This document shows positions 7,195 to 23,945 of a stretch of DNA of 64,000 nt, one piece after another. The position numbers and the translations under genes were made by a program. Each line of letters starts with the position of its first letter. Position 1 is the stretch's first letter. The notes below the pieces were generated by a model. That model was not told the DNA's origin, did no database searches, and worked only from the letters and a program-made list of their open reading frames with translations. The stretch lies in the sequence record NC_025447.1. One strand, 5' to 3'. This DNA is from Escherichia phage 121Q.

Positions 7195-7289
7195 TTAAAC
7201 ACAAGTAGACAGGGGAAGCTCCTAGTGAACAACCTTTATGTACAGGCGAATTGTTAAAATTCAGCCTGGACAAATGCGATCACTAGGAT

Positions 7290-10294: not shown

Positions 10295-10525
10295 ATGACT
10301 AATATGTATATGACTGAAGTTAAAACCGTAAAAGATACTACCACGAATAAAACTACTTACTTACAGCGGATCTGCGGTGTATGGCAACGTATCAGCAAAT
10401 CAAAGTACTTTAAATTAACATCATATGCCAATCGTTCGGATTCATTCAGTACTGAAATAAAAGGTAATAAAGTACACCAATACGGCACTTATTATTATTA
10501 TAGCCTGGACGCGATTGCAGTATAA
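10295..10525 (+). CDS. hypothetical protein (76 aa)
   Basis: SD CTGGAGT; ATG 10295. Confidence 0.65.
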   Translation: MTNMYMTEVKTVKDTTTNKTTYLQRICGVWQRISKSKYFKLTSYANRSDSFSTEIKGNKVHQYGTYYYYSLDAIAV

Positions 10526-10555: not shown

Positions 10556-10584
10556 TTGACTTATTTTGTCAGTACTGGCATAAT
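10556..10584 (+). promoter_or_regulatory. promoter (rightward) of convergent pair flanking box element
   Basis: TTGACT, 17-nt spacer containing CAGTACTGG, CATAAT. Confidence 0.5.
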
Positions 10585-10607
10585 GTATCTATTGAAACGA
10601 ACAATTT

Positions 10608-10683
10608 GGCCCACGGGGTGCGGGAGTGTATCTATAGAAAAAGTAGTTTATTACAGTTACAATTGTGCACCCGGTGGGTTAGC
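10608..10683. repeat. Inverted pair of the 'CCCACNGGGTGC' box (candidate small structured RNA)
   Basis: ggcccacggggtgcgggagtgtatctatag ... tgtgcacccggtgggttagc: ~12-bp imperfect arms around a ~45-nt loop. Confidence 0.45.
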
Positions 10684-10699
10684 TGTTGTCATGGGGTAT

Positions 10700-10728
10700 A
10701 TTATGCCAGTACTTGATAATGCTGTCAA
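10700..10728 (-). promoter_or_regulatory. promoter (leftward) of convergent pair
   Basis: Minus strand reads TTGACA, 17-nt spacer, CATAAT (plus strand attatg...tgtcaa). Confidence 0.5.
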
Positions 10729-10775
10729 TACTTTTTTTTTACTATTCAGTACTGAAAACTATTTTTAAAAAGTAC

Positions 10776-10803
10776 TTGCAAACTATGTTTAAAGGCGTAT
10801 AAT
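10776..10803 (+). promoter_or_regulatory. early-type promoter (first of tandem pair)
   Basis: TTGCAA, 16-nt spacer, TATAAT; followed by conserved ~85-nt leader also present at 20777-20862. Confidence 0.55.
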
Positions 10804-10893
10804 GTTTTACATCAGGACGGGGAATGAAATAAGTAACTCCCTGTTAAGTAGTCCAGGAGTAAGACATACGAAAACCTCCCCTGATAAAATAGT

Positions 10894-10921
10894 TTGACAA
10901 AGATTTATAAAAGCGTATAAT
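10894..10921 (+). promoter_or_regulatory. early-type promoter (second of tandem pair)
   Basis: TTGACA, 16-nt spacer, TATAAT. Confidence 0.55.
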
Positions 10922-10953
10922 ACTTACATCAACTACTGAATGAGGGTTACAAA

Positions 10954-11565
10954 ATGAAAACTATCACTACTACTACTTTCGTTATGGCTTTTTCTGAACT
11001 GAACGCAGAACAACAAACGGCGGCTATCGAACTGGTTCGGGATCGGGAACGTGCAAGTGAGGATAATTTCTTTGCTGAGTCAGTACTGGAATACTATAAA
11101 GAAACAGTACTACCAGAATACGGCATAGATGAAGCTGAATTGCAATACAGTGGTTTTTGGTCGCAAGGTGACGGTGCATCAATCAGTACTGACCACGTTG
11201 ACGCTGAGAAGTTTTTACGCAAGGTTAAGGCGTTAACGAAATATCGTTCCATCCGTCACCTGTTGAACGAAGATGATTTGGAAATGAGTGTAGAACGTTC
11301 CCAATCGCGTTATGCACACGAAAACACGGTAGGCGGTTGCGTTGATACTCGCTACACTGATTTAACTGTAAAACAGGCGGCGTTAGCTGAGGAACTGGAA
11401 AATTTACTGACTGACACGATCCGAGAATTATCTTGTAAGCTGTACCGTGATTTAGAAAATGCTTATGAAGACCAGTTTACTACTGAAAACATTGTAGGAC
11501 TGATTGAGGGTAACGAATATCAATTTAATGTTATCGATGGTGTAGTAGAATCTATCGCATATTAA
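10954..11565 (+). CDS. hypothetical acidic protein (203 aa)
   Basis: SD GAGGGT; long ORF with even codon structure; acidic composition. Confidence 0.7.
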   Translation: MKTITTTTFVMAFSELNAEQQTAAIELVRDRERASEDNFFAESVLEYYKETVLPEYGIDEAELQYSGFWSQGDGASISTDHVDAEKFLRKVKALTKYRSIRHLLNEDDLEMSVERSQSRYAHENTVGGCVDTRYTDLTVKQAALAEELENLLTDTIRELSCKLYRDLENAYEDQFTTENIVGLIEGNEYQFNVIDGVVESIAY

Positions 11566-11623
11566 TTCAGTACTGAATCACTGGCGGGGAATGGTTCCCG
11601 CCTATATCCCAGGAGTAAGAGAA

Positions 11624-11860
11624 ATGATCGAACAAATCAAAACTACAACGCCAAACGTAACGGGTACAGTATCACACTTCATTGGTGACGATTCGCGGGG
11701 CGTTCCTTATTGTGCAGTACATGTAAACAAAAATGGCGACTACTGGCTAACGGTTTACGGTTCTTATTCTTTCGGGCGTAGTGCACACCAAAAGATCCTG
11801 GATAAAGTACAACCAACGGGTAAAAATATCACCGCTGAGATGTTTTATAAAAAGCACTAA
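11624..11860 (+). CDS. hypothetical protein (78 aa)
   Basis: Start trimmed to ATG 11624 after SD CCAGGAGTAAGAG; preceded by hairpin GGCGGGGAATGGTTCCCGCC. Confidence 0.6.
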   Translation: MIEQIKTTTPNVTGTVSHFIGDDSRGVPYCAVHVNKNGDYWLTVYGSYSFGRSAHQKILDKVQPTGKNITAEMFYKKH

Positions 11861-13401: not shown

Positions 13402-13429
13402 TTGACATTACCAGGGAAAAGCGTAGAAT
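13402..13429 (+). promoter_or_regulatory. early-type promoter
   Basis: TTGACA, 16-nt spacer, TAGAAT. Confidence 0.55.
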
Positions 13430-13543
13430 GTATTACATCAAGACGGGGAACATTAAGTAGACCGCCAGTAAGTCGAATGAAAAACTGGACACGTCAAACA
13501 AACTTTGATAAACTAACTTAAACTTTAATTGAGGATTTATAAA

Positions 13544-14026
13544 ATGGCTAATGTAAAATCATTTCTGAAAGCACTGATTTCTAACGATACTGTCATTGCT
13601 GCTGAATTGCTGGCTGACCTGGATAATGATACCATGAAAGCAGTACGCAACAATTTTAACATTGCTTACAGTGAAGCGAAAGAACTACAAGCCAAAAAGG
13701 TAGCAGAACTGGAAGAACAGAAAAAAGCCCGTGAAGCAGAACTGCAAGCAACAATAGAAAGTATTCAGGCGGCGGTGTCTGGTTTAGATCTGGAAGTGGT
13801 TATTGAAATGGCACATAAAGCCCTGGCGGTTAAGTACGGTGAAGATAAGCCGGAATCTAAGCCTAAAAAATGGATTCAAGAACGTGTTACGGTTGTCCTT
13901 GATAACGGGGAAGAACATTTGATTCCTGTACGCGGTAACTGCATTGCGGTAGTACTGGATGCTATCAAAGAAAGCGGTATGACTCGCGAGGAATGGATCG
14001 AATCTCACCGCAAAATTGAAGCATAA
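13544..14026 (+). CDS. hypothetical protein (160 aa), coiled-coil-rich
   Basis: Start trimmed to ATG 13544 (MANVKSF) after SD GAGGAT. Confidence 0.65.
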   Translation: MANVKSFLKALISNDTVIAAELLADLDNDTMKAVRNNFNIAYSEAKELQAKKVAELEEQKKAREAELQATIESIQAAVSGLDLEVVIEMAHKALAVKYGEDKPESKPKKWIQERVTVVLDNGEEHLIPVRGNCIAVVLDAIKESGMTREEWIESHRKIEA

Positions 14027-16915: not shown

Positions 16916-16924
16916 AAAAAGTGG

Positions 16925-16953
16925 TTGACTTCGGTCAGCCATTTTGCTATTAT
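16925..16953 (+). promoter_or_regulatory. promoter with embedded inverted repeat, driving the box element
   Basis: TTGACT, 17-nt spacer (tcggtcagccattttgc), TATTAT. Confidence 0.5.
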
Positions 16954-20600: not shown

Positions 20601-20618
20601 AAAGAATAAAAAAAGGGA

Positions 20619-20647
20619 TTGACTCCGGTCAGTCCCTTTGCTATTAT
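20619..20647 (+). promoter_or_regulatory. promoter with embedded inverted repeat, driving box element
   Basis: TTGACT, 17-nt spacer (ccggtcagtccctttgc), TATTAT. Confidence 0.5.
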
Positions 20648-20665
20648 ATACGCATAGACAAAAAC

Positions 20666-20747: not shown

Positions 20748-20775
20748 TTGCATTGTACTTAGAATCAAGTATAAT
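20748..20775 (+). promoter_or_regulatory. early-type promoter (first of tandem pair)
   Basis: TTGCAT, 16-nt spacer, TATAAT; followed by conserved ~85-nt leader. Confidence 0.55.
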
Positions 20776-20862
20776 GTTTTACATCAGGACGGGGAACGAA
20801 ACAAGTAACCCCGTTAAGTAGTCCAGGAGTAAGACATACGAAAACCTCCCCTGATAAAATAG

Positions 20863-20890
20863 TTTGACAATAGAAATTAAACAAGTATAA
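20863..20890 (+). promoter_or_regulatory. early-type promoter (second of tandem pair)
   Basis: TTGACA, 16-nt spacer, TATAAT. Confidence 0.55.
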
Positions 20891-20921
20891 TACTTACATC
20901 AACCACAAAGAGGAATACAAA

Positions 20922-21122
20922 ATGAAACATTTTACTTTCGGTGTAGTAGGCTTTACAGTATCCAGCGGCGTTTATAAATCAGAACGCGGTGCTAAAAATG
21001 CAGCAAGTCGGGCGTATGGTTCACAGCGTGACTTACAGGTCGGTTATATTAGTAACATTAATAACATGTTTATTCCTGTTTCACAGCGTAAAGCGGGTAA
21101 CATGAAATGGGAAACAATTTGA
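20922..21122 (+). CDS. hypothetical protein (66 aa)
   Basis: SD AAGAGGAAT; ATG 20922. Confidence 0.65.
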   Translation: MKHFTFGVVGFTVSSGVYKSERGAKNAASRAYGSQRDLQVGYISNINNMFIPVSQRKAGNMKWETI

Positions 21123-21131
21123 TAAAATAGT

Positions 21132-23898: not shown

Positions 23899-23916
23899 AA
23901 AAGATTAAAAAAGGGA

Positions 23917-23945
23917 TTGACTCCAGTCAGTCCCTTTGCTATTAT
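23917..23945 (+). promoter_or_regulatory. promoter with embedded inverted repeat, driving box element
   Basis: TTGACT, 17-nt spacer, TATTAT. Confidence 0.5.

Follow-up and report, generated by a model that had tools for sequence, protein, structure and literature searches.

The 64,000-nucleotide (nt) stretch of Escherichia phage 121Q analysed here (NC_025447.1), referred to below as the window, is the early-gene region of an Asteriusvirus-like jumbo coliphage (PBECO4/121Q/G17-type) and shares 86–92% nucleotide identity with many such genomes. Two segments of ~75 nt on its + strand, copy A (10811–10885) and copy B (20783–20855), each lie between a pair of sigma-70 promoters. At copy A the upstream promoter, TTGCAA-16-TATAAT (10776–10803, with the -35 hexamer at 10776–10781 and the -10 hexamer at 10798–10803), gives a predicted +1 at A10811, placed 7 nt past the -10 by analogy with T7 A1 (GATACTtacagccATCGAG), and the second promoter, TTGACA-16-TATAAT (10894–10921), stands ahead of a short leader and a gene starting at 10954. 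The same arrangement is found at copy B, where TTGCAT-16-TATAAT (20748–20775), with a predicted +1 at A20783, precedes the element and TTGACA-16-TATAAT (20864–20891) stands ahead of a gene starting at 20922. The downstream genes are unlike, phrog_5162 (203 amino acids) for copy A and phrog_7744 (66 amino acids) for copy B. When the two loci are aligned, identity extends over the upstream promoter hexamers, the element and the second promoter's -35 hexamer, whereas the 16-nt spacers of both promoters are wholly different. A 43-nt core, GTTAAGTAGTCCAGGAGTAAGACATACGAAAACCTCCCCTGAT, is identical in copy A (10843–10885) and copy B (20813–20855), with a chance expectation of 0. A preliminary description of this DNA had proposed two loci with a promoter, a conserved segment, a second promoter and different genes, and this is borne out by the alignment, the promoter consensus and the gene families.

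We describe the element as very probably an RNA structure of the + strand, rather than a coding or DNA-level feature, and as one member of a widespread, unannotated family of 5′-leader RNAs. A third, diverged copy, absent from the preliminary description, was found by a covariance model at 13453–13490 and is the best match to that model in the window (53.4 bits, E 1e-13); it is referred to as type II, and copies A and B as type I. Matches to the sigma-70 consensus lie 8–45 nt upstream of each of the three copies, and the element is on the sense strand at most ~100 nt from the promoter, transcription itself being predicted. Intrinsic terminator-like sites are present 3′ of each copy. The opening of the element resembles the other early leaders of the window and then departs from them, without a start codon. 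A scan of the sequence for tRNA and tmRNA gave no match.

Predicted fold and covariation

The minimum free energy fold of copy A (-17.5 kcal/mol) consists of helices P0, P1 and P3, and the whole fold extends from the predicted +1 to the end of the closing helix P0 (10811–10885). The 5′ strand of P0, AUCAGG (10811–10816), is invariant within type I and pairs with CCUGAU (10880–10885), which directly abuts the 3′ strand of P3, so that the predicted 5′ end of the transcript would be buried. Next to it is the P1 hairpin (10817–10844), ACGGGG(A)...(U)CCCUGU, with a variable 14-nt loop, followed by an H-type pseudoknot core (10846–10879) that is matched by the covariance model at 10844–10881 (49.4 bits, E 1.5e-12). 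In P2, G10848, U10849, G10851, U10852 and C10853, with A10850 bulged, pair with G10863, A10864, C10865, A10866 and U10867; in P3, G10856–G10859 pair with C10876–C10879 (CUCC). The loops are CA (L1), UAA (L2) and ACGAAAAC (L3). Copy B folds in the same way (-19.2 kcal/mol), with P0 formed by 20783–20788 and 20850–20855, P1 at 20789–20814, the pseudoknot core at 20816–20849 and a covariance-model match at 20814–20851 (49.4 bits); its P1 is CGGGG/CCCCG with a loop 2 nt shorter than that of copy A. Within type I the P1 stem is retained, with G-C changed to G-U in two variants, and its loop varies freely through substitutions and insertions or deletions of 1–4 nt, while the 43-nt core is nearly fixed.

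The type II copy (13437–13509) begins with AUCAAGACGGGG at a predicted +1 of A13437, behind a sigma-70 promoter TTGACA-16-TAGAAT at 13402–13429, and has its pseudoknot core at 13453–13490. The ~105-nt leader after this promoter aligns without gaps with the type I core, and the differences fall on both sides of helices: GGAGU/ACUCC of P3 is replaced by CCAGU/ACUGG (13465–13469 with 13484–13488), and G-U-C/G-A-C of P2 by G-A-C/G-U-C, giving an A-U middle pair. The core pattern is accordingly UAAGUAGUC ... UAAGACAUACGAAAA in copies A and B, with U-A in the middle of P2, and UAAGUAGAC ... UAAGUCGAAUGAAAA in the 13453 copy, with A-U. Type II has no P1 hairpin. Its tail can be paired back manually, GACG (13442–13445) with CGUC (13492–13495) and AUCAAG with UUUGAU (13504–13509); the minimum free energy fold does not show this closing stem. 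The type II copy is a true 5′ untranslated region, with a Shine–Dalgarno (SD) sequence at 13531–13535 and an ATG at 13544.

Across the family the core reads UAAGUAG-N-C, L1, the P3 5′ strand, UAA, G-N′-C-R-Y, NNGAAAA and the P3 3′ strand, with N and N′ complementary in P2. All three window copies show the features by which the motif family (model R1) is defined here, namely this core pattern, a P3 of 4–6 base pairs, proximity to a promoter and a tail that pairs back. As modelled, the fold is closed and knotted twice, and the nucleotides of its junctions and loops (AAGUAG, UAA and GAAAA) do not vary.

A pattern scan of IMG/VR gave 74 loci, of which ~40 distinct members were left after removal of evident chance matches in coding sequence. 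Covariation was tested on 29 distinct cores (39 columns) for the 10 pairs of the pseudoknot helices P2 and P3. Of the cells, 95.9% are paired, a percentage inflated by the search pattern and by the selection of members for P3 complementarity, neither of which inflates the diversity of the P3 helices. Half of the pairs (5 of 10) are changed on both sides, and the covariation score of 0.393 compares with 0.159 ± 0.02 in shuffled alignments, none of 500 shuffles reaching it, and with at most 0.07 in slid controls. P3 occurs as nine different helices, GGAGU/ACUCC, CCAGU/ACUGG, GCCUG/CAGGC, GCUUG/CAAGC, ACCUG/CAGGU, ACUUGU/ACAAGU, AGCCAG/CUGGUU, UCCUG/CAGGA and GCCAG/CUGGU, and the middle pair of P2 may be A-U, C-G or U-A. 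G-U pairs are frequent; they are possible on the + strand RNA only, being A-C mismatches on the other strand, and the covariance-model matches are all on the transcribed strand. With the covariance model derived from the cores, the window yields exactly three copies (10844–10881, 13453–13490 and 20814–20851; 49–53 bits) and each T7-like genome one. The equivalent of the P1 hairpin covaries in T7-like phages. In every lineage the tail 3′ of P3 pairs back, with different sequences. In T7-like phages the partner is the P1 loop (GUCAA/UUGAC, GAUUAG/CUAAUC, GUCGGU/ACCGAC, GUCAC/GUGAC and GUCAUC/GAUGAC, 5–6 nt after P3), and in all other lineages it is the 5′ end of the transcript (AUCAGG/CCUGAU in the window, GCGGC/GUCGC, UCAACGAA/UUCGUUGG, AUCGAA/UUCGGU and GACGG/CCGUC).

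These changes bear on an SD-like sequence in the element that, according to the preliminary description, matches the SD region of gene 11624 and has no start codon. Both observations hold: an exact 12-mer, CCAGGAGTAAGA, recurs at 11609–11620 ahead of the ATG at 11624, and no ATG, GTG or TTG lies at a suitable distance 3′ of the GGAG in copies A and B. The 12-nt match is real but was picked post hoc, and has no counterpart in the wider family. The GGAG is the 5′ strand of P3 and would be base-paired in the modelled fold. Relatives replace GGAG(U) by CCAGU, GCCUG, GCUUG, ACUUGU, UCCUG or AGCCAG, and in each case the partner strand, 20 nt downstream, has changed to match; since the two strands change together, it is the helix that is conserved and not a ribosome-binding sequence. 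Of the two interpretations offered earlier, a structured leader RNA is therefore strongly supported by the covariation, and a remnant gene start is not, because the pairing rather than the GGAG is conserved. No open reading frame (ORF) is conserved on either strand of the element.

Two further matches are of lower quality. In the record of phage CMSTMSU (MH494197.1, 'UNVERIFIED_ORG'; L006, 2039–2070) the copy lacks the CAG of CCAGGAG and one C of the C-run, with two P3 pairs lost and a score reduced to 32.8 bits, which points either to degeneration of the copy or to an error in sequencing. A weak covariance-model match in the window at 7201–7224, ACAAGUAGACAGGG..CCUA (12 bits, E 0.13), covers the 5′ half of the motif only and is probably due to chance.

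Distribution among phages and the T7 leader

Type I was found by BLAST in 43 phage records. It is present in every Asteriusvirus, in two copies or in four where the terminal repeat is written twice, and as a single copy in four Vequintavirinae (A73, W70, A7_1 and A5-4) and three Justusliebigvirus (muut, outra and EmilieFrey). It always lies between two sigma-70 promoters, upstream of differing genes, and in these records is either unannotated or covered by a doubtful 'hypothetical protein'. A search with the type II copy of the window gave 37 records. More diverged versions, each with another complementary P3, are found in Asteriusvirus EJP2, Vequintavirinae LTH01 and the Erwinia jumbo phage Hallingskeid. 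With the Hallingskeid version (core plus flanks) as query, 561 records were matched; among the matches listed, those outside Hallingskeid and Asteriusvirus are nearly all from T7-like and other Autographiviridae, and these cover the core. The hosts of the listed Autographiviridae are Escherichia, Klebsiella, Salmonella, Enterobacter, Yersinia, Citrobacter, Serratia and Pantoea, and T7 itself is listed (nt 551–586). LIMEzero-like and Aeromonas podophages also carry the motif. The core is 85–92% identical between the window phage and T7-like podophages that share nothing else with it.

Other Justusliebigvirus have the same promoter and the same first 14 transcribed nt, followed by an ordinary leader of hairpin, SD and ATG. 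As the same start leads into two kinds of leader, the element behaves as a cassette exchanged at promoter and leader homology. Small early genes pooled among Asteriusvirus, Vequintavirinae and Justusliebigvirus have nucleotide identities of 69–90%, with the element at the top (86–94%). Asteriusvirus genomes are at least 94% identical over the whole region, and conservation within the genus is thus uninformative on selection.

All three copies are inside the 21.5-kb direct terminal repeat annotated in phage vB_Ec-M-J (OQ718158.1, 1–21525), where their equivalents lie ~3.7, 6.7 and 14.2 kb from the left end. Their location in the repeat means that they are present twice per virion genome, and the DNA that carries them may be the first to enter the cell.

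The T7 motif lies at nt ~550–589, between the early promoters A1 (+1 = 498) and A2 (...CACCGGGGTCAACCGGATAAGTAGACAGCCTGATAAGTCGCACGAAAAACAGGTATTGACA...). By sequence and structure the A1–A2 leader (nt ~498–600), which contains UAAGUAGACAGCCUGAUAAGUCGCACGAAAAACAGGU, belongs to the same family. A P1 hairpin, CCGG-GGUCAA-CCGG, precedes the motif and the next sigma-70 promoter follows at once, giving the architecture seen in the window of a strong early promoter, a folded segment and the next promoter. Unlike the window copies, T7 has a separate 5′ stem-loop before the motif, and its tail pairs with the P1 loop (GUCAA/UUGAC) and not with the transcript 5′ end, the UUGAC being the A2 -35 (TTGACA) at the DNA level. 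Its P3 is GCCUG/CAGGU, where type I in the window has GGAGU/ACUCC. To our knowledge this stretch of T7 has served as a transcription template and has never been described as an RNA element.

No copy of the element, and no homologous or antisense match to it, was found in E. coli genomes. Rfam 15 gave 0 matches at the gathering threshold in the whole window, only noise (E of at least 1.2) at 10700–11000 under permissive thresholds (E up to 10), and, with E up to 1, no match over the motif in T7, Hallingskeid or LTH01. Strict pattern scans of IMG/VR for type I gave no matches, and metagenome and genome scans returned only Asteriusvirus-like contigs and two chance matches (L012 and L017). In literature searches on Asteriusvirus, PBECO4, the T7 leader, boxA and the sequence string, the T7 fragment was met solely as a template, although older T7 descriptions that are not indexed are possible. 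The motif family appears to be undescribed.

The surrounding early region

Some 30 near-consensus sigma-70 promoters are found on the + strand between 7800 and 25600. After nearly all of them comes a leader of the form acatca(a/g)-GGGGAGAAuaguUCUCCCC hairpin (GGGGAGAA-uagu-UUCUCCCC type), SD and ATG, and the T7 A1 RNA starts similarly (AUCGAGAGGGA...UCCC..UCGA). The palindrome CAGTACTG occurs 61 times in the window, with 0.78 expected (for example at 10447, 10570, 10747, 11568, 12474, 16476 and 18621), often inside the spacer of a promoter and immediately before its -10 (..agtactgTATAAT) or, in the form TTCAGTACTGAA, where genes end; this distribution suggests a phage-specific site for protein binding or modification.

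Upstream of copy A a convergent promoter-like pair, at 10556–10584 on the + strand and 10728–10700 on the - strand, both ..agtactggCATAAT, flanks an inverted repeat, GGCCCACGGGGTGC ... GCACCCGGTGGGTT. Ahead of copy B lies a related motif, 'gcccacagggtgc', and similar motifs are found near 20660 and 18667. The arrangement at 10556–10728 could represent a further non-coding element, or else a terminator working in both directions. Hairpins resembling terminators, AAAGGGATTGACTCCGGTCAGTCCCTTT + GCTATTAT, recur at 16918–16945, 20612–20639 and 23910–23937, their stems holding a TTGACT -35 with a TATTAT -10 just after, so that each module combines a terminator with a promoter.

The genes that follow the type II copy in the window phage (13544–14023) and in EJP2 (L027, 706–1263) are related to each other, phrog_27871 and phrog_20181 with no function assigned. 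The gene after the Hallingskeid copy (L025, 774 onward) seems related too, by its N-terminus (MSKSIVTLK versus MAKNIVTLK), and LTH01 has phrog_8099 after its copy instead. A gene-specific link may thus exist for type II only.

Candidate functions of the leader RNA

Taken as a whole, the element is best explained as a structured early-leader RNA that acts in cis and co-transcriptionally, to which we assign a probability of roughly 60%. The mechanism considered by itself is more tentative, and the largest single share, well below even odds, goes to a cis-acting co-transcriptional element that, by analogy with known systems, would be recognised by the host elongation machinery. The element would be transcribed from a strong host RNA polymerase (sigma-70) early promoter within the first ~100 nt of the RNA; in the myophage members it starts at the predicted +1. 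Having no terminator of its own, it heads whatever follows, be it a second promoter, a boxA, or a ribosome-binding site (RBS) and gene. The folded nascent RNA would act in cis, while being transcribed, through recognition by a conserved host elongation component, either RNA polymerase itself or a Nus or ribosomal-protein factor. Polymerases from the upstream-most promoter would then become resistant to Rho or to intrinsic terminators, or faster, with the HK022 put RNAs and the rrn and lambda boxB-boxA leaders as analogues. Such a cis-acting role fits the loop nucleotides that are invariant across unrelated phage families sharing only a host group, the position ahead of other promoters, the indifference to the identity of the downstream gene, and the rrn-type boxA found alongside in T7-like and LIMEzero-like phages.

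The favoured functional analogy is with putL and putR of HK022, which are cis-acting folded RNAs just downstream of early host RNA polymerase promoters and act on their own polymerase irrespective of the sequence that follows; these have two stem-loops without a pseudoknot and no sequence similarity to the element. In the rrn and lambda antitermination leaders (boxB-boxA(-boxC), with Nus factors) boxB is a simple hairpin, unlike the pseudoknot, which in LIMEzero-like phages occupies the rrn boxB position ~15 nt upstream of a boxA identical to that of rrnB. The phage mRNA of T4/T2 gene 32 likewise carries an H-type pseudoknot in its 5′ leader; that pseudoknot is gene-specific, nucleates gp32 autoregulation and has no sequence similarity to the element, whereas the genes after the element vary (phrog_5162, phrog_7744, phrog_27871, phrog_8099 and others).

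A boxA identical to rrnB boxA lies at most ~15 nt after the pseudoknot in LIMEzero-like phages (L059) and further downstream in T7-like phages. The covariance model finds no homologue of the pseudoknot in the rrnB leader. Some T7-like early leaders (L100, L045 and L050) share short colinear identities with the rrnB P1–P2 leader (L104) at similar spacing, GACACGG, ACGGCAA, CGCCGGGTCA (10 nt) and boxA TGCTCTTTAACAAT (14 nt, E 6e-4), the short matches being individually not significant. The pseudoknot in those leaders takes the place of rrnB nt 155–198. At the level of sequence this hints that T7-type early leaders imitate the leader of the rRNA operon.

Several points weigh against the proposed role. 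Its mechanism is argued from position and conservation alone, and the fold differs from that of put RNA in having a pseudoknot in place of two stem-loops. No boxA ((Y)GCUCUUUAACAA) is present within 2 mismatches near any of the three window copies, matches in the window being at chance level, so that dependence on Nus factors cannot be general; a Nus-dependent antitermination site as such was for the same reason rejected for the window. Of ~7 terminators in the 8–24-kb region, only 2 are followed by a promoter carrying the element, and the element is dispensable in most Justusliebigvirus and Vequintavirinae. As to the structure, the IMG/VR search pattern itself imposed part of the invariance (AAGTAG.C, TAAG.C and GAAAA), members were told from chance matches by the required complementarity of P3, and covariation within type I alone is weak, amounting to one pair, probably one event, with one exception (phage EmilieFrey).

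An alternative, which we regard as unlikely though deserving attention, is a protective fold at the 5′ end, in which P0 would bury the triphosphate end and the compact pseudoknot would block RppH and the 5′-end-dependent entry or scanning of RNase E. The long transcript from the upstream promoter would thereby be stabilised, the element being an elaborate version of the simple 5′ hairpins of this phage's early leaders. P0 does begin at the predicted +1, nearly all other early promoters of the window are followed by a 5′-proximal GGGGAGAA...UUCUCCCC hairpin, the element stands in for such a hairpin at the syntenic Justusliebigvirus locus, and the explanation does not depend on which gene lies downstream. 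Known 5′ stabilisers, the ompA 5′ hairpin and the Bacillus STAB-SD/SP82 polypurine, are likewise 5′-terminal structures, and type I also has an SD-like sequence without a start codon near its 5′ end. Unlike in the stabilisers, however, the family as a whole does not keep this SD-like sequence, which the predicted fold places in a helix, and the sequence constraint is far above what a stabiliser hairpin needs; a mere obstacle would not require ~20 loop and junction nucleotides to be invariant across unrelated phage families. In T7-like phages, moreover, the pseudoknot is not at the 5′ end but follows a separate 5′ stem-loop. As is established for T7, RNase III severs the leader from the 0.3 mRNA at R0.3, so it cannot stabilise the message there.

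Slightly less probable again is an RNA acting in trans as a decoy or anti-defence factor, in which an abundant immediate-early RNA, released or still attached, would titrate some conserved protein of the host, for instance an RNase, an RNA chaperone, ribosomal protein S1 or a sensor of a defence system. Phage pseudo-ToxI pseudoknot RNAs, which neutralise ToxN, provide an analogy. The near-consensus promoters, the three copies per jumbo genome in a terminal repeat that may enter the cell first, the invariant loops, the absence from host genomes, and the accessory and horizontally mobile character of the element among unrelated lytic phages of one host group would all be in keeping with a decoy. 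Against this, neither a terminator nor an evident processing site marks off a discrete small RNA, and there is no tandem repetition, no adjoining toxin-like gene and no candidate partner. A type III antitoxin (ToxI-like) was rejected, the copies being single and 2.6–10 kb apart without tandem repeats, with neighbouring proteins that have no Pfam domain.

It is improbable that the element is a ligand-sensing aptamer, in which binding of a metabolite or ion would alter the folding of the leader as in a riboswitch. Small H-type pseudoknots with invariant loops are typical of aptamers, and the size, the pseudoknot topology, the A-rich L3 and the high nucleotide conservation recall the small aptamer classes; the Rfam riboswitch families gave no matches at E up to 10, and what follows is no conserved expression platform but, depending on the member, a promoter, a boxA or, 40 nt on, an RBS. 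Hammerhead, twister and pistol ribozymes were also considered and find no support in Rfam. A CsrA sponge, suggested by two CAGGA motifs, was set aside because the GGA is not conserved in the family.

More improbable still is a relic of a gene start, that is, a promoter-leader-SD cassette without its ORF, spread as a neutral spacer by recombination between repeated promoters. The identity of CCAGGAGTAAGA to the RBS of gene 11624, the ordinary opening of the element, an ordinary leader in Klebsiella phage KP13-7 that ends ...UCCCUGUUAAGGAGUAAUUACUAUG, and the unexceptional conservation of the element within Asteriusvirus would fit this origin. It is already contradicted by the covariation, which preserves pairing and not GGAG, by a free P1 loop beside a nearly fixed 43-nt core with no conserved ORF, and by the close identity of the core in otherwise unrelated T7-like podophages; a functional RBS or gene start would also need a start codon, which the segment lacks, and type II and T7-like members have other sequence in place of the SD. 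Two small reading frames fail likewise, an upstream ORF from ATA (IRKPPLIK*) in which ATA becomes ACA in some relatives and a 1-nt insertion in muut disrupts the ATA...TAG frame, and a minus-strand frame (MSYSWTT*) that loses its stop in GTTGAG variants and undergoes non-synonymous changes. A link to the downstream 203-amino-acid gene is not upheld, its homologues in rV5, PHA46 and KP13-7 having ordinary single-promoter leaders.

The least likely possibility is a DNA-level site, an UP element or protein-binding site serving the second promoter, or in a minor variant a tiny minus-strand ORF with SD GGAGG and ATG: although in T7-like phages the P3 3′ strand abuts the A2 -35 and a GAAAAA run lies at the position of an UP-element subsite, and although the minus strand of copies A and B has GGAGG-N7-ATG, no promoter lies downstream of the 13453 copy or that of EJP2, the sequence after P3 in L028, L045, L050 and L100 is not a -35 hexamer and yet covaries with the P1 loop, the G-U pairs would be A-C mismatches on the other strand, and of three other variable positions in the mini-ORF two change the amino acid and the third turns ATG into GTG. 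That the segment might simply be promoter UP-element sequence, which the preliminary description named as a finding that would refute its reading, is contradicted by the same members without a downstream promoter and by the strand-specific G-U pairs; only the last ~12 nt, GATAAAATAGT, are a generic upstream part of promoter 2, and these recur at 21120–21131 without the element.

If confirmed, the family would be a new class of structured RNA, unusually broad among virulent coliphages and lying inside the T7 A1 template long used in transcription biochemistry; many expression and in vitro transcription constructs derived from T7 A1 contain the motif. The element is also a compact, portable module of ~40–75 nt that could be tried directly as a leader part. 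ORF calls across it should stop, several records placing a 'hypothetical protein' there. The invariant loops point to a specific host partner, the identity of which could show how phages tune early transcription by host RNA polymerase, or RNA survival, in the first minute of infection, and which in T7 possibly bears on transcription-driven genome entry. It is plausible, at somewhat less than even odds, that unrelated lytic phages of Enterobacterales and Aeromonas, including T7-like and LIMEzero-like podophages, rV5-like and Justusliebigvirus myophages and 350-kb jumbo phages, have in common a mobile RNA with two pseudoknots that is one of the earliest products of the entered DNA and would take over a conserved factor of the host. 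It would then represent either a new class of processive antiterminator or elongation enhancer for E. coli RNA polymerase, or a new decoy against a host nuclease or defence system, and if this is true, the RNA would have gone unnoticed for 40 years between the T7 promoters A1 and A2.

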